From the NCBI GenBank assembly GCA_014686905.1, contig GCA_014686905.1_4093.1: 64,000 nt of DNA; one strand, 5' to 3'. This DNA is from a phage. A program made the position numbers and the translations under genes. Positions 482 through 63,942 of the stretch are shown here, one piece after another; the first letter of the stretch is position 1, and every line of letters begins with the position of its first letter. The notes beneath the pieces are model-generated. The model worked only from the letters and a program-made list of their open reading frames with translations. It searched no databases and was not told the origin of the DNA.

Positions 482-1327
482 GTGTTTGATTTCAGTGATA
501 TTAAAAATAAGTCGGTCGATGATGATGAAAAACCAACACAGCATTCTTTTTCTATTGCTGAATTTCTAAAACACATTGACCGTGCTGATTATAAGTACTA
601 TAATGACATGACCGAAAAAGAACGAAAAGAGTTTACTCCATATACTGTTTTGCGATGGGTAAGCTCTTTAGATGATTCGTTACAAGTAACCTACCCTAGT
701 AGTAAAGTTGAAAGTGTATTTGGAAAATGGAAATCTGGTGGTAAAGAAGCACTGACTGAACTAGTTACTGAATTAAAGTCTTCAGGGACAAATGTTTCAT
801 CAGTAACTAAGTACTGTCATAGTGATTATGATTGGCGTATTAAATTTGCAGTCCAATCAAAAGATGACGCACAAAAATTAATATCCTCAATGGTCGAATT
901 TGGCGTATCAGGTTCAGAAATTGTTTCATTAGTAGATACTGAAGTTGTCAAATACCAACTTATTATGCTAAATGATATGGTTAATGATGGATTTTGGGAT
1001 ATGAAAGAACATCCAGAATTAGTATATCAGCTTATGTGTTCAGTCCATGATATGATTGGTGGACAAGAAATGCCACGTAACTGGTTAAACTTTTCTAAGA
1101 ATTTCAAAAAGGCAAATAACGAATTATTTGAGTTAATTAAAAGCTCACAACCTGATACTATATCTACTCAAATGAATGAAGATGAGTACAAAATTGTTCT
1201 ATTGCAGTATGATAAAAAAACATTTGAGACATTTCTTGACAATAATGGTTTTCAAGATAATGAAAAGAAATCTATGATGAAATTGTTTAAAGAAGAATGT
1301 AAAAAATATGGCAAAGAAATCAAGTAA
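482..1327 (+). CDS. hypothetical protein
   Basis: 281-aa ORF beginning with GTG 5 nt after previous stop; no recognisable motif. Confidence 0.45.
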   Translation: MFDFSDIKNKSVDDDEKPTQHSFSIAEFLKHIDRADYKYYNDMTEKERKEFTPYTVLRWVSSLDDSLQVTYPSSKVESVFGKWKSGGKEALTELVTELKSSGTNVSSVTKYCHSDYDWRIKFAVQSKDDAQKLISSMVEFGVSGSEIVSLVDTEVVKYQLIMLNDMVNDGFWDMKEHPELVYQLMCSVHDMIGGQEMPRNWLNFSKNFKKANNELFELIKSSQPDTISTQMNEDEYKIVLLQYDKKTFETFLDNNGFQDNEKKSMMKLFKEECKKYGKEIK

Positions 1328-2018
1328 TAAAGTATATACCTGTAGATTTTGTGATCGTGAATTTAAACGTGAAGAAACTGTAAACACACATAAATGTATA
1401 AAACGTGACCGATACGAAGACCGCCAAAGCCGCCAGATGATGGAGGCTTTTCGTATATATATGCAATTTATGGAATTGAATAAGTTCCCATTTAAAAAAG
1501 GCGTAGAGCCTTTTATTGCTTTTATAAAGTCAAAGTACTTTAATGATTTTTATAGTTTTGCCGAATACTATTTGAATAATAGAGATATTATTAATGTGGA
1601 CGAGTTTGTAAAGTACTTGATTATCAATAACAAACCAATCACGGAATGGAGTACATATAAAGCAAAAGATGAATGGATATTAAAAACAATTCGTGCCGAG
1701 CACCCAAAAGAAGCAATTGCAAGAAGTGTTATCTCACTGGTTGAATGGGCTGAAAATTTGAATGTACAATGGAATACTTTCTTTGAAAATGTAAGTTCTG
1801 CCCGTGCAATTGCATGGATTGAGAGTGGTAAAATTTCACCTTGGATTATCTGGCTTGCTCCTAAAAAAAGTACTAATAAGTTTTTTAAAAAACTATCAAA
1901 CTCAGAAATTGAATATATACTTAAATACATCGATCCAAGTTATTTTGAAATCAAAACTATAAAATACAAAAAGGATTGTGATGAAATTAAGATTATGCTA
2001 TGTGAGGCAGGATTATGA
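1308..2018 (+). CDS. hypothetical protein with N-terminal C2H2-like zinc finger
   Basis: CRFC...HKC spacing near N-terminus; 236 aa. Confidence 0.45.
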   Translation: MAKKSSNKVYTCRFCDREFKREETVNTHKCIKRDRYEDRQSRQMMEAFRIYMQFMELNKFPFKKGVEPFIAFIKSKYFNDFYSFAEYYLNNRDIINVDEFVKYLIINNKPITEWSTYKAKDEWILKTIRAEHPKEAIARSVISLVEWAENLNVQWNTFFENVSSARAIAWIESGKISPWIIWLAPKKSTNKFFKKLSNSEIEYILKYIDPSYFEIKTIKYKKDCDEIKIMLCEAGL

Positions 2019-2344
2019 ATGGAAAAAGTATATATAATAAAATACCAGAAGGGTATGTACCTGTACCTAAAGAACAAAAATCAAAACAAATATCTCTACT
2101 TAGACAAGGATCTATTACTGAAATAACTTTAGATGGTAAAACATTTCAAGTTCATGATCCTGCTCGTATTGAAAAAATTATTTCTTTGGTAGAAAGACAC
2201 GAAGAACGCTTTTTCAGTTTAAGTCAAGAATTGGCAAAGACAAAACAAAATTGTAGATTATTAGAGAATCAAATATCAACTTTGACTAATACAGTTAAAC
2301 AGTTACAGGAGCAAATAAAAAATGCAGGATTCGACCGATTCTAA
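2015..2344 (+). CDS. hypothetical protein
   Basis: 109-aa ORF, 4-nt overlap with upstream gene. Confidence 0.4.
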   Translation: MNGKSIYNKIPEGYVPVPKEQKSKQISLLRQGSITEITLDGKTFQVHDPARIEKIISLVERHEERFFSLSQELAKTKQNCRLLENQISTLTNTVKQLQEQIKNAGFDRF

Positions 2345-2960
2345 ACATTATAGAAAAGCCCGAACTGATATTGACATTGACTTCAAGGATAGTAAAAGCG
2401 TAATCGCTAAACTTCCATGTGTGCGAAGTACTGAAAAAATTACGGAGGATGGTTTAATCCCCCATAATAGTGGTGTTCATTTTGATAATATACCTATTGA
2501 TCCAATCACTGGATTGGCAAGTATACAATATAAAGAAGCTGAAAGGTTAGGGTATCAAAAAGTTGATATTCTTTCACAGTCAGCTTACATGTATGTTCGT
2601 GATAGAGAGCATTTAAAAGAACTAATGAATCAGGAACCAAATTGGGATCTATTGTTAGAACCCGAAATTGTAGAACATCTATCGCAAATTAAAAAACATG
2701 TAACTTTATTAAATGTATGGAAGCCTAAATCTATAGACGAACTAGCAATGTTTATTGCAATGATTCGCCCAGGAAAAAGGCAGTGCCAAAGTATGAACAC
2801 ATGGGACGAAGTTAAAGCTACCATATGGGATTATAGTACTATAGGCACTGACCAAGCAGGAAATAAATTACGATATTTCAAAAAGCCACATGCTTACGCA
2901 TATAGCTTAATGATTGTTGTACAACTAAATGCTTTAGTTGAACATCTTACTTCTTCTTAA
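2322..2960 (+). CDS. DnaE palm-like minimal nucleotidyltransferase candidate (C-terminal part)
   Basis: Collinear motifs resembling Pol III alpha: DIDIDF (cf PDFDVDF catalytic Asp pair), YQKVDIL (cf KFDFLGL third Asp), AMIRPG (cf ALFRPGP), KKPHAYAYSL (cf NKSHSAAYAL); by-eye alignment only. Confidence 0.4.
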   Translation: MQDSTDSKHYRKARTDIDIDFKDSKSVIAKLPCVRSTEKITEDGLIPHNSGVHFDNIPIDPITGLASIQYKEAERLGYQKVDILSQSAYMYVRDREHLKELMNQEPNWDLLLEPEIVEHLSQIKKHVTLLNVWKPKSIDELAMFIAMIRPGKRQCQSMNTWDEVKATIWDYSTIGTDQAGNKLRYFKKPHAYAYSLMIVVQLNALVEHLTSS

Positions 2961-3300
2961 GAGCCACATTACGACGCTTGATGCGTTTCTGTGGCAAATT
3001 GCTTAAAGAAACTACTGGACCACATACGAAATTCACCGACGGTGTATCGAATCTCTGTGTGTACGGTTCAAATTTCTCCATCTCTTCTTGAAAGAATAGA
3101 CAAACTGGAATGGTTCTATTACTTTGCCACCACCAATCGTGTGCTATACCTAACAATTCGTCTTGCATTGAATCATCCATATCATCGAAACAGTAAAGAG
3201 TTGTATACTGTTTGCTTTTGATTTTGATGATACCAACAAACGTTTTACCATCATACTGGATTACAGTAATGAATGGTGGAATAGTGTTATATTGATTCAT
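2947..3300 (-). CDS. hypothetical protein, only minus-strand ORF in first 17 kb
   Basis: 117-aa ORF fills the 330-bp gap between + genes; weak GGAA upstream of ATG; alternative + ORF 2991..3221 overlaps. Confidence 0.3.
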   Translation of the reverse strand: MNQYNTIPPFITVIQYDGKTFVGIIKIKSKQYTTLYCFDDMDDSMQDELLGIAHDWWWQSNRTIPVCLFFQEEMEKFEPYTQRFDTPSVNFVCGPVVSLSNLPQKRIKRRNVALKKK

Positions 3301-33018: not shown

Positions 33019-33330
33019 ATGTTTAATCCGTTTTTTGACCCGTCTGGGATGACGGAGAAAGAACTACAGTTGAAAATTAATGAACAGTCAATGCGTATAA
33101 CTTCAGCCCGTGCCGCTGGTATGAGTGATATGATTATTGGTAATATGCAAACTGTGTTAAATCAATGTTATGCTGAACTAGAACTTCGTCAAGGACAAAA
33201 AGAAAAATCTGTTTATGATGAAGAAGACTCATGTATCTTCGACATGGATTCTTATCTAACTGACAATGAAGAGGCCCAGAAAAAGAAAAATGAAAGTACA
33301 AGGAAACAGATTTATAAGTCCCAATGGTGA
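33019..33330 (+). CDS. hypothetical acidic protein
   Basis: 103-aa ORF; overlaps next ORF by 65 nt. Confidence 0.3.
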   Translation: MFNPFFDPSGMTEKELQLKINEQSMRITSARAAGMSDMIIGNMQTVLNQCYAELELRQGQKEKSVYDEEDSCIFDMDSYLTDNEEAQKKKNESTRKQIYKSQW

Positions 33331-33808
33331 TGTAAAATGTAATCTTAACGCAGTAGTTTATGCAATCAATTGCGGTGCGGATATCCAGTACTTACAATTG
33401 CAGGAAATTGATGAACCTGAAAGGTTGAAATTCAATGATAACTGTAAAAAATTTGGCTTAGAACAACGTATGCTGGATTATACTATCGAGCATGATAAAA
33501 ATCATGAACTTTGGCGTTATGATCCAGTATACGATAATATAAATCTACGTGACTTTTTCTTACAAAAATGTACATCAGATGAAGCACGAAAGCGTGTTGA
33601 GTATGAACTAGATTTATATGAATATTATAATATGACAAAGCTATTAAGATGTATGATATGGCTTGTTGATTATATGGAAGAAAATGAGATCTTTTGGGGT
33701 CTAGGTCGTGGAAGCTCTGTTGCATCATACTGTTTGTTTTTGATTGGACTACATATGGTAGATTCATTGAAGTACGAACTTGATGTTAACGAATTTTTGA
33801 AATGGTAG
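33266..33808 (+). CDS. DnaE palm-like fragment candidate (N-terminal part)
   Basis: C-terminus GLGRGSSVASYCLFLIGLHMVDSLKYELDVNEFLKW resembles Pol III alpha [34 protein letters not shown]; start uncertain. Confidence 0.35.
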   Translation: MKRPRKRKMKVQGNRFISPNGDVKCNLNAVVYAINCGADIQYLQLQEIDEPERLKFNDNCKKFGLEQRMLDYTIEHDKNHELWRYDPVYDNINLRDFFLQKCTSDEARKRVEYELDLYEYYNMTKLLRCMIWLVDYMEENEIFWGLGRGSSVASYCLFLIGLHMVDSLKYELDVNEFLKW

Positions 33809-33871: not shown

Positions 33872-34216
33872 ATGTCTAAACATACAACTTATCGTGGTAC
33901 AACAATTGACATGGATATGCTCAAGTACCAAAATCAACATCAGGTAGCATTAGGTAATGCTAATTTAAACGCACGTGGTGATAAAATCGGTTCAGGTGGA
34001 ACAATTATTAAAACTCGTGAAGAGTTGATTCAAGAAAAAGAACGAGAAATGCAAATTCCTGATTATATCCCTGAACATCAACTTCATAGTACTGAACATG
34101 GTACGGATGAAGTATGGGATGATGAGAGTTTTGAAGTTAAGCCCGAAGAACAAGAAGCTGAGGTTTCTGAAGAGAAGAAAGCACCACGTCGAGCTAGAAC
34201 CAAAGATCAGGAGTAA
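33872..34216 (+). CDS. hypothetical protein
   Basis: 114 aa with acidic C-terminus; promoter upstream. Confidence 0.4.
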   Translation: MSKHTTYRGTTIDMDMLKYQNQHQVALGNANLNARGDKIGSGGTIIKTREELIQEKEREMQIPDYIPEHQLHSTEHGTDEVWDDESFEVKPEEQEAEVSEEKKAPRRARTKDQE

Positions 34217-34224
34217 TATATTAA

Positions 34225-34551
34225 ATGACTAATAAAGTAATGACTGCATGTAAAGGTAAAGTACTGGTAACTGAACTGGAACATGGTGAACGCAAAACAG
34301 CAGGTGGTATCGTTTTAACAAACGATGACGGTAAAATTAGAGGTATTCGTTCTCGCTGGGCAAAAGTTTATTCTGTAGGCGAAGACATTACTGATATTAA
34401 AGAAGGTCAATGGATTTTAATTGATCATGGTCGATGGTCAAGAACTATTGAAGTTGATGGTATTGAATTAAACTTGGTTGATTACCCAGCCGCAGTTAGT
34501 TTAGTTTCAGATGAAGATCCACGAACTAAAATGCTAACCTTTGGTCGTTAA
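34225..34551 (+). CDS. GroES-like co-chaperonin (Cpn10)
   Basis: GKVLVTELEHGERKTAGGIVLT matches GroES DRVIVKR..ETKSAGGIVLT; length 108 aa. Confidence 0.7.
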   Translation: MTNKVMTACKGKVLVTELEHGERKTAGGIVLTNDDGKIRGIRSRWAKVYSVGEDITDIKEGQWILIDHGRWSRTIEVDGIELNLVDYPAAVSLVSDEDPRTKMLTFGR

Positions 34552-34604: not shown

Positions 34605-34877
34605 TTGATGATAACTGATGATGGAAAATTTAGTTTCAAGGATGTAACATTAGTATCTAAAAACGGAAGATTCATGTTTGAAGATAGAAAAAATACCAAA
34701 TATGTATATGAAGTTTCACATGATATGTTTAAAGTTTTATTAGTTGCATCAGCCCAAGCTGAAAGTACTGGGATTAAAAATAAGGCAAATTCTTTTAATT
34801 TTTTATTAAATCAATTGGAAATGACAGAAGAACTTTTCACGGCTTTATTATATAATTCAGCCGATTGGATTCTATAA
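34605..34877 (+). CDS. hypothetical protein
   Basis: 90-aa ORF. Confidence 0.35.
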   Translation: MMITDDGKFSFKDVTLVSKNGRFMFEDRKNTKYVYEVSHDMFKVLLVASAQAESTGIKNKANSFNFLLNQLEMTEELFTALLYNSADWIL

Positions 34878-34900
34878 CACGTACACATAAGGAAATACAA

Positions 34901-35854
34901 ATGACCACACTATGGACTGAAAAATATCGCCCACAATCAATGGAAGATTATGTATCAAAAAACGATGCACTACGCCAGAAAATGGAAGAATGGATTAAGA
35001 CTGGTGACATTCCACATATTGGGTTTTTTGGCCCAGCAGGAACTGGTAAAACATCTGCGATCAAAGTACTAATTAATGGACTAGTTCAAAATGGACACCT
35101 TGATCCAAGTGATGTGACCACGCTTAACATGTCCGATGAAGGCATTGATGCTGTTCGTGACAAAATCGATGCCGCAGCAAAGCTATCATGTTTTGGTAGA
35201 TATCGTATTTTTGTTCTTGAAGAAATGGAGCAGATGAACCACAAAGCACAAGGTAGTTTGAAACGTGTAATGGAAGACTATCATGAAAATGCTCGCTTTA
35301 TTTTAACAAGTAACGAACCACATAAAATTCAAAAACCTATCATTTCTCGTGTTCAAGTTATTACAATCGAAAAGCATGATATGGAACAATTCATGACTCG
35401 AATTTATAATATTCTTCTAGCAGAAGGTGTTGATTTGAGTAGTGATGATAGTGTTGAACAAGTTCAAAAGTATATCAATGCTTCCTATCCTGATTTCCGT
35501 AAAACACTAAACGTATTGCAAAGTTCAGTTGTTGATGGTAAGCTAGTAAAACTTGAAGATAGTATTGAAAATTCAGCAGGGTATCGTACTGCAATTGTTG
35601 AAGCATTAAAGGCAGGAAACATTCGCCAAATGCGTGAACAAATTGTACAAAATATCCCTGATGATGAGATGGATGCATTCTTTTCTTATCTGTATCGTAA
35701 TGCTGAAATGTTCAGTACTGATGAAATCACACTGATGAAGATTAAAGTTAAAATTCGTGATGCAGTTGTTAAGCAAGCAACAGTATCAGACCGTGAAATG
35801 AATCTTAGTGCTTTACTGTGTGAGATTGACCTAATTTGTTCGGGGAACATGTAA
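34901..35854 (+). CDS. clamp-loader ATPase (T4 gp44/RFC-like AAA+)
   Basis: WTEKYRP...FFGPAGTGKTS Walker A, VLEEMEQ Walker B; track ORF 34865 starts TTG, ATG 34901 has AAGGA RBS. Confidence 0.8.
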   Translation: MTTLWTEKYRPQSMEDYVSKNDALRQKMEEWIKTGDIPHIGFFGPAGTGKTSAIKVLINGLVQNGHLDPSDVTTLNMSDEGIDAVRDKIDAAAKLSCFGRYRIFVLEEMEQMNHKAQGSLKRVMEDYHENARFILTSNEPHKIQKPIISRVQVITIEKHDMEQFMTRIYNILLAEGVDLSSDDSVEQVQKYINASYPDFRKTLNVLQSSVVDGKLVKLEDSIENSAGYRTAIVEALKAGNIRQMREQIVQNIPDDEMDAFFSYLYRNAEMFSTDEITLMKIKVKIRDAVVKQATVSDREMNLSALLCEIDLICSGNM

Positions 35855-61242: not shown

Positions 61243-61578
<336 letters not shown>

Positions 61579-61579
61579 A

Positions 61580-61762
61580 ATGACACACGAAGAATGGATG
61601 TCCAAACAGCATAAAGAACATGACTGCTTTGGGAATGGCATTCGTCAGGTACATTATGATATATTAAGAGATGAAAATCTTTTCAGGTCATATGTTTTGG
61701 ATACCAGAAAACCCTGGTTTATATGCGAACTGGCATTTAGAAAGTCAAATAATCAAAACTAA
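61580..61762 (+). CDS. MTHEEW-family mini-protein, copy 3
   Basis: Track ORF 61562 (TTG); ATG 61580; conserved 5' context cacttaattgNactggatacataaaatgacaca shared with copy 2. Confidence 0.5.
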   Translation: MTHEEWMSKQHKEHDCFGNGIRQVHYDILRDENLFRSYVLDTRKPWFICELAFRKSNNQN

Positions 61763-61778
61763 ACAAGGAATACAAAAA

Positions 61779-61997
61779 ATGGAAACAACTTTATTTGAAG
61801 TTATTCAATCATTAAAACCTGAAGATGAGGTTCAAGTACTACTACATGGTTATCGTGTAAAAGGTACTGTGGTTTTAGTCAATGATACAACATTGGTTAT
61901 TACAGAAACAAACCCATATGATAGTAATCAACTTGCCAATATCCATATCGATATCACTGGAATTATTGGTGTCGGTGTATCTAAAGCACTTGCATAA
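61779..61997 (+). CDS. hypothetical small protein
   Basis: Track ORF 61671; ATG 61779 after AAGGAA. Confidence 0.35.
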   Translation: METTLFEVIQSLKPEDEVQVLLHGYRVKGTVVLVNDTTLVITETNPYDSNQLANIHIDITGIIGVGVSKALA

Positions 61998-62017
61998 ATC
62001 ATTAATTCATTATATAA

Positions 62018-62146
<129 letters not shown>

Positions 62147-62150
62147 AATA

Positions 62151-62227
62151 CGGGGTATAGCACAATTGGATAGTGCAAGAGAATTCTAATCTCTAGGTTG
62201 GGGGTTCAAGTCCCTCTACCTCGGCCA
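62151..62227 (+). tRNA. tRNA-Arg (anticodon TCT), CCA encoded
   Basis: Acceptor CGGGGTA/TACCTCG, D-stem GCAC/GTGC, anticodon loop ATTCTAA, T-arm GGGGG-TTCAAGT-CCCTC. Confidence 0.8.
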
Positions 62228-62250
62228 ATTTTAATTAAAGGTTAAAAACC

Positions 62251-62411
<161 letters not shown>

Positions 62412-62415
<4 letters not shown>

Positions 62416-62572
62416 CACATGAAGAATGGATGAATGACATTAATTTTAGATATTCGGGTATCGGTAGATGGCTAAAGTATCATTGGGAATTCATTTCAGA
62501 GCCACATCTGTATGATAAACTTATCAACGATCCAGCATATGAAATGTACTTAATTGAACTACTGGTACGATT

Positions 62573-62576
<4 letters not shown>
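62412..62576 (+). CDS. MTHEEW-family mini-protein, copy 5 (54 aa)
   Basis: MTHEEWMNDINFRYSGIGRWLKYHWEF...; ATGA overlap with copy 4. Confidence 0.5.
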
Positions 62577-62738
<162 letters not shown>

Positions 62739-62747
62739 AAAAAAAAG

Positions 62748-63156
<409 letters not shown>

Positions 63157-63161
<5 letters not shown>

Positions 63162-63186
63162 CTAAATAGTTCAGTACTGATATAAT
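63157..63186 (+). promoter_or_regulatory. repeated promoter cassette copy 2
   Basis: Identical 23-bp repeat, TTGACT-17-TATAAT. Confidence 0.65.
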
Positions 63187-63237
63187 GAATTCCACAATCA
63201 GACGTATATGGTGTAAGTTACGTATAGTGAGGTTTAT

Positions 63238-63845
<608 letters not shown>

Positions 63846-63849
63846 ATTA

Positions 63850-63921
<72 letters not shown>

Positions 63922-63942
63922 CATAAACAATGAGAGGTATAA

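Follow-up and report, generated by a model that had tools for sequence, protein, structure and literature searches.

The window considered here is the whole stretch of 64,000 nucleotides of phage DNA that was analysed (GenBank assembly GCA_014686905.1, contig GCA_014686905.1_4093.1). Its first 12 kb are 99.6–100% identical to the Escherichia jumbo phages slurp01, G17, Sharanji and PBECO4 (Asteriusvirus), and the 100% identity of the window to slurp01, G17 and Sharanji identifies it as DNA of an Asteriusvirus jumbo coliphage. The gene under study, ORF 2322..2960, encodes a 212-aa protein (here the C unit) that is 99.5% identical to gp16 of phage 121Q, named 'DNA polymerase' in RefSeq. In the annotation of 121Q another small gene, gp56, is likewise labelled a polymerase ('DNA polymerase III alpha'), and this led to ORF 33290..33808 of the window (here the N unit), 31 kb away from the C-unit gene. 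The features to which the text refers are the following, with E. coli DnaE residues given for comparison.

2307..2311, plus strand: AGGAG ribosome-binding site, 10 nt 5' of the ATG of ORF 2322..2960, read from the sequence
2322..2960, plus strand: C unit, 212 aa, equivalent to 121Q gp16; second palm half and proximal fingers
2367..2381, plus strand: D16-I-D18-I-D20, aligned by HMM with DnaE D401-F-D403-V-D405; two of the three catalytic carboxylates
2463..2477, plus strand: H48-N-S-G51-V on the strand formed by residues 44-53; probable counterpart of DnaE H511-A-G-G-V
2559..2567, plus strand: K80-V-D82, aligned by hhalign with DnaE K553-F-D555; third catalytic carboxylate
2643-2654, plus strand: W108DLL, aligned by profile with DnaE F597DML
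2757..2774, plus strand: finger motif A-M-I-R149-P150-G, aligned by Pfam, HMM and hhalign with DnaE A636-L-F-R639-P640-G641
2880..2903, plus strand: finger motif K187-K188-P-H190-A-Y-A-Y194, aligned by HMM with DnaE N757-K758-S-H760-S-A-A-Y764
2947..3300, minus strand: convergent 117-aa ORF (PHROG 11637), overlapping the 3' end of the C-unit gene tail-to-tail by 14 nt
33290..33808, plus strand: N unit, 172 aa, equivalent to 121Q gp56; first palm half with the nucleotide-binding loop
33704..33718, plus strand: G139-R140-G141-S142-S143 of the N unit, equivalent to DnaE G361-R362-G363-S364 in the DnaE alignments (coordinates checked)

The first 23 nt of the C-unit gene are shared with the end of the preceding ORF 2015..2344, and the same tight gene run includes a 236-aa ORF (1308..2018, plus strand; PHROG 11058, function not assigned), the product of which carries an N-terminal C-x2-C...H-x-C zinc-finger-like motif with weak matches to C2H2 Pfam models (E 0.07-0.3). 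A scan for promoters and terminators gave background numbers (25 found versus 23.2 expected), the minus-strand hairpin at 2468-2439 is probably due to chance, and the short minus-strand ORFs 2506..2640 and 2630..2824 within the C-unit gene were rejected as unsupported. At the other end of the window ARAGORN called a cluster of six tRNA genes (61265..63922, plus strand), including a tRNA-Arg(TCT) at 62151-62227 and a tRNA-Ser with the unusual anticodon ACT at 63657-63748; in 121Q a tRNA-Leu(TAA) is annotated right after the corresponding tRNA-Ser(TGA).

The first-pass annotation had recognized by eye, in the 212-aa protein, five motifs in the order in which they occur in bacterial Pol III alpha, and had proposed that the protein is homologous to the catalytic region of this enzyme with its Asp triad. 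All five motifs are present where it had placed them (coordinates checked), and the homology is borne out by the fold match, by natural fusions and by contiguous Pfam and HMM alignments over the junction of the two units. For four of the five correspondences the profile alignments hit exactly the expected E. coli residues; the fifth, between HNSGV and H511AGGV of DnaE, is most likely correct but is derived from the strand order in the structure model and from a low-confidence hhalign path. In 231 near-full-length relatives of the C unit, with sequence identity down to about 30%, D16, D18 and D82 are invariant, as is P150, and D20 is found in 222; K80 and H48 are each retained in 230 of these proteins, R149 in 229, and G51 and H190 in 228. 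At E-values of 0.001 or better this large family breaks down into 785 clusters at the 90% level and into 522 at the 50% level, and the length of its full-length members almost always falls between 185 and 220 aa.

The C unit is homologous to Pol III alpha from approximately D401 to approximately residue 785, but the sequence-only evidence for this protein taken alone is below significance. Among Pfam models only PF17657, a finger-domain model, was matched, over AMIRPG, with an E-value of 0.045 and a score of 13.5 bits, short of the 22 bits required, and an NCBIfam scan, DnaE models included, gave no match; thus, the C unit does not reach curated Pfam/NCBIfam thresholds, which the N unit and a natural fusion of the two units do reach with PF07733. 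A single-sequence phmmer search of the PDB returned a match to dynein only, which was rejected as spurious. With the family profile the best E-value against the PDB was 0.45, and the sole matches were to M. tuberculosis DnaE1, in four collinear pieces. The hhalign comparison of the C-unit family with E. coli DnaE alone was also not significant (E 0.033), yet it aligned the right residues. The assignment is clear with PHROG 11778 ('DNA polymerase'), for which residues 9-211 of the C unit cover the whole profile (1-197 of 197) with an E-value of 2.1e-108. The structure model of the C unit (pLDDT 92.9) matches the solved structures of Pol III alpha and PolC, and the fold search returned C-family polymerases only, with no unrelated fold among the matches. 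In several GenBank entries (GAP32, CBB, pEa_SNUABM_47 and _50, Muenster) the features that coincide with the C-unit match include a 'putative membrane protein', and the source name of the pEa_SNUABM_50 protein is likewise membrane protein; on relatives of the C unit this label is almost certainly a mis-annotation.

The R-G-S loop of the polymerase (R362, G363 and S364 in E. coli DnaE) is not part of the 212-aa protein and is found in the separate N unit. The latter corresponds to PHROG 11127 and matches PF07733 with an E-value of 2.1e-9 and 37.8 bits (cutoff 23.9), the match stopping at the C terminus of the protein, at position 95 of the 260 of the profile. The hhalign procedure aligns it with DnaE residues 319-394 (E 3e-6), the alignment ending 6 residues short of D401, and the GRGSS sequence is invariant in a 40-sequence alignment. 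The N unit also has an N-terminal stretch of its own of about 57 aa, modelled with lower confidence, and an alternative ATG at 33266 would extend it to 180 aa. Its start overlaps a conserved 103-aa ORF (33019..33330, plus strand; PHROG 15348, function not assigned). Because the N unit aligns up to DnaE residue 394 and the homology of the C unit begins at about D401, the split point lies between N395 and D401 of DnaE.

The two units were found in 96 and 94 phage records (about 95 jumbo phages), with near-identical counts in each genus (e.g. 11 and 10 in Klebsiella). In all these phages the two genes are unlinked, their spacing ranging from 15 kb in CM1, through about 31-34 kb in the enterobacterial phages and 44 kb in the PA5oct group, to 116-224 kb in SCTP-2, Atu_ph07 and Phosso. 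Rare natural single-chain forms, with the N part followed by the C part, are encoded in metagenome contigs, namely P0302, P0390 and P0391 (375-376 aa) and P0378 (336 aa). In P0302, PF07733 spans the joint (residues 97-207, E 4.8e-16, 59.6 bits); the profile of the fused family gives one continuous alignment with DnaE 321-421 (34.7 bits), and the hhalign comparison of the fused family with DnaE has a probability of 97% and an E-value of 5.7e-11. The structure of P0302 was modelled from an alignment containing equal numbers of N and C units and the four fusions. By analogy with such a homologous natural fusion, which is about 35% identical to the window pair, the N and C units may be expected to assemble. 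One fused gene (L003:519-1649, plus strand) can be placed at the C-unit locus because its two downstream genes are homologues of those of the window.

Joining of the two chains by an intein was rejected, as Pfam scans revealed no intein or Hint domain and the chains have no residues to spare; both genes are provided with a start codon. For the two reasons given, the chain ends abutting in the DnaE sequence, the assembly is proposed to be non-covalent.

The absence of PHP and OB domains from the 212-aa protein, as initially claimed, is confirmed: there is no Pfam match to PF02811 (PHP) in either unit, and the chain of the C unit ends at DnaE ~785, so that it has neither the distal fingers nor the OB domain, and no parts for tau binding or clamp binding/HhH. 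The thumb is also gone, DnaE ~436-510 (about 75 residues) being replaced by a turn of two residues that links strands 34-41 and 44-53, and about 80 residues are deleted between the RPG and KSH motifs. The fingers, which had also been considered to be missing, are partly retained, with AMIRPG and KKPHAYAYSL lying in the proximal fingers and the former giving the weak match to the Pfam finger-domain model. The fingers of E. coli DnaE, which we take to extend over residues ~561-911, would include the equivalents of both motifs. K80, R149, K188, H190 and Y194 are kept in the C unit beside the carboxylates D16, D18 and D82. Processive DNA synthesis is doubtful because no thumb, HhH, OB or recognizable clamp-binding element is present.

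Both genes lie among genes of DNA replication. At the C-unit locus the order is C unit, convergent ORF of ~120 aa, ORF of 240-350 aa, primase and DnaB helicase, and at the N-unit locus it is N unit, small ORF, GroES-like gene and clamp loader. Pseudomonas phage Paride and Agrobacterium phage Atu_ph07 share both of these orders with the window, and since both neighbourhoods are common to phages of Escherichia, Pseudomonas and Agrobacterium, the split and the positions of both genes are old. In the window a 114-aa ORF and then the GroES-like gene (33872..34551, plus strand) separate the N unit from the clamp loader (34865..35854). The 117-aa ORF that converges on the C-unit gene does so likewise in Atu_ph07, in Paride and beside the fused gene of L003 (BLASTP E 1e-23, 7e-24 and 6e-10), its homologues being located as follows.

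L006:5548-5907, minus strand: homologue of the 117-aa ORF
L007:5581-5979, minus strand: homologue of the 117-aa ORF
L003:1641-2000, minus strand: homologue of the 117-aa ORF

The tail-to-tail overlaps, that of the window included, measure 9-17 nt. The product contains a 'DWWWQSNRTIP' motif, ends in a basic tail, and has no match in Pfam and none by sequence in the PDB; from its synteny it is possibly an accessory factor. Phage 121Q also encodes a stand-alone DnaQ/RNase T-like 3'-5' exonuclease, gp9 (L001:8128-8946; PF00929, E 6.7e-15), which precedes the C unit by seven genes or about 5 kb and the start of the window by about 2 kb. The replicative polymerase of this phage is accounted for by gp610, a complete T4 gp43-like family B polymerase (PF03104 and PF00136), the gene of which lies outside the window. 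Since gp610 has its own exonuclease domain, one may speculate that gp9 serves as proofreader for the split enzyme.

From these data, the 212-aa protein is to be regarded, with near certainty, as one half of a split mini Pol III, and ORF 2322..2960 very likely supplies the C-terminal unit of a minimal, phage-specific DNA polymerase of the C family that is encoded by two genes. The N and C proteins would associate into a single Pol-beta-like palm with proximal fingers, about 384 aa in all, which would catalyse two-metal-ion nucleotidyl transfer, most probably in the form of template-directed DNA synthesis. It is probable that the assembly is an active nucleotidyltransferase, whereas the balance tips only somewhat in favour of its being a templated DNA polymerase. 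Mini Pol III would operate as part of the primase-helicase and clamp-loader modules that harbour its genes, and it is probably an accessory enzyme, employed in primer extension, in the synthesis of one strand or in repair, because it has no PHP, thumb, clamp-binding, HhH or OB part and because the near-identical 121Q encodes a complete family B replicase of the T4 type. If active, this two-chain enzyme of ~384 aa would set the minimum for a catalytic core in the family of bacterial replicative polymerases, and a T4-like replisome would be seen to accommodate a second polymerase that is unrelated to the first.

The same features could also belong to an active nucleotidyltransferase that is not a templated polymerase, responsible for template-independent tailing, for RNA or primer modification, or for the synthesis of a nucleotide signal in phage-host conflict. 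The loss of every DNA-gripping part of Pol III alpha (thumb, HhH/beta-binding, OB) and the presence of a full PolB in 121Q speak for such a function, as does the fact that the Pol-beta-like fold is common to many non-polymerase enzymes. However, the RPG and K-x-H-xxx-Y motifs, which in Pol III alpha contact the incoming dNTP and the template, are nearly invariant in the fingers of the C unit, and both genes are found inside replication modules, so that this function is considered unlikely. In a different extension of the polymerase hypothesis, the N and C halves would be the catalytic heart of a multi-part C-family polymerase in which small conserved proteins, with the product of the 117-aa ORF and gp9 as candidates, replace thumb, clamp-binding and proofreading parts, the whole acting as a primer-extension or lagging-strand polymerase beside PolB. 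Such an arrangement is improbable on present evidence; if it were true, the complex would be the smallest working C-family polymerase known and a model of the ancestral form.

The first-pass annotation had favoured a simpler solution, namely that the 212-aa protein alone is a complete, stripped-down nucleotidyltransferase core. All three catalytic carboxylates are indeed present in it and it adopts a confident fold by itself, but the first half of every Pol-beta-like palm is formed by a helix-loop bearing the G-S motif, which here resides with its R-G-S loop in a separate and strictly co-occurring protein, the N unit at 33290..33808, and the two parts are fused in rare relatives; the proposal must be abandoned as very improbable. 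The extreme shrinkage and splitting of the protein, along with the many GenBank records that call it 'hypothetical' or 'membrane protein', might instead suggest the decayed, non-catalytic remnant of a captured dnaE, now a pseudo-enzyme or a structural protein. There is scarcely any probability that this is so, given that the Asp triad is found in 231 of 231 relatives and K80, H48, R149, P150 and H190 in at least 228, at identities down to about 30%, that the family comprises 522 clusters at the 50% level with a stable length among full-length members, and that both halves are kept together in all lineages. Finally, although single-sequence searches gave no significant match, a chance likeness of short motifs in an unrelated fold is refuted by the fold search and the structure match of the modelled proteins, and the natural fusions and the contiguous Pfam/HMM alignments over the junction likewise lead to Pol III alpha.

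The preferred interpretation, a split minimal C-family polymerase, can be set against the known members of the family. With bacterial DnaE (E. coli; T. aquaticus, 2HPI; M. tuberculosis DnaE1, 7PU7 and 5LEW) the phage pair has in common the Pol-beta-like palm, the carboxylates equivalent to D401, D403 and D555, K553 and the R-G-S loop, as well as the RPG and KSHxxxY motifs of the fingers, the latter in the form K-x-H-xxx-Y. It differs in size, with about 384 aa in two chains versus about 1160 in one, in the lack of any counterpart of the PHP, thumb, distal fingers, beta-clamp-binding/HhH, OB and tau-binding parts, and in the extension of about 57 aa that is unique to the N unit. The inserted DnaQ exonuclease of PolC (Geobacillus kaustophilus, 3F2B) and its OB, thumb and duplex-binding domains have no counterpart here. 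The minimal palm fold and the carboxylate triad are shared with Pol X, CCA-adding enzymes, aminoglycoside and lincosamide nucleotidyltransferases and MenT. Division of a C-family polymerase between two distant genes also occurs in cyanobacteria, where the products of Synechocystis DnaE-n and DnaE-c are joined by split-intein trans-splicing into a full-size DnaE. The split site is different in the cyanobacterial protein, and the phage pair has no intein.

The family of the 212-aa protein has already been described (Iyer et al. 2021, Viruses 13:63, PMC7824862) and annotated (PHROGs 11778 and 11127; RefSeq 'DNA polymerase'). No experimental study of any of its members was found in the literature; the omics paper on PA5oct does not mention the N-unit and C-unit genes, the PaBG paper deals with the gamma and beta subunits only, and a term search of a 2026 NAR survey of bacterial polymerases gave nothing on minimal or split C-family forms in phages. 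According to the accessible text of Iyer et al. 2021 (PMC7824862), a minimal split DNA polymerase III alpha is present in group 2.2 jumbo phages as two stand-alone proteins from distant genes, of which the N protein is NTP-binding and the C protein Mg- and template-binding, with no further Pol III domains and, in T4-like jumbo myoviruses, alongside a polymerase of family B; the split minimal form was proposed there as a model of the ancestral Pol III. The 212-aa protein is the C-terminal unit of this system, with no essential difference from what that text describes: the N and C genes are distant, and 121Q encodes, in addition to its PolB, a gp23-like capsid protein, the gp20 DnaB helicase and the gp60 RFC-like clamp loader. 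What the present analysis adds to the accessible account is the position of the split point, the loss of the thumb, the rare fused forms and the micro-synteny, including the convergent 117-aa ORF.
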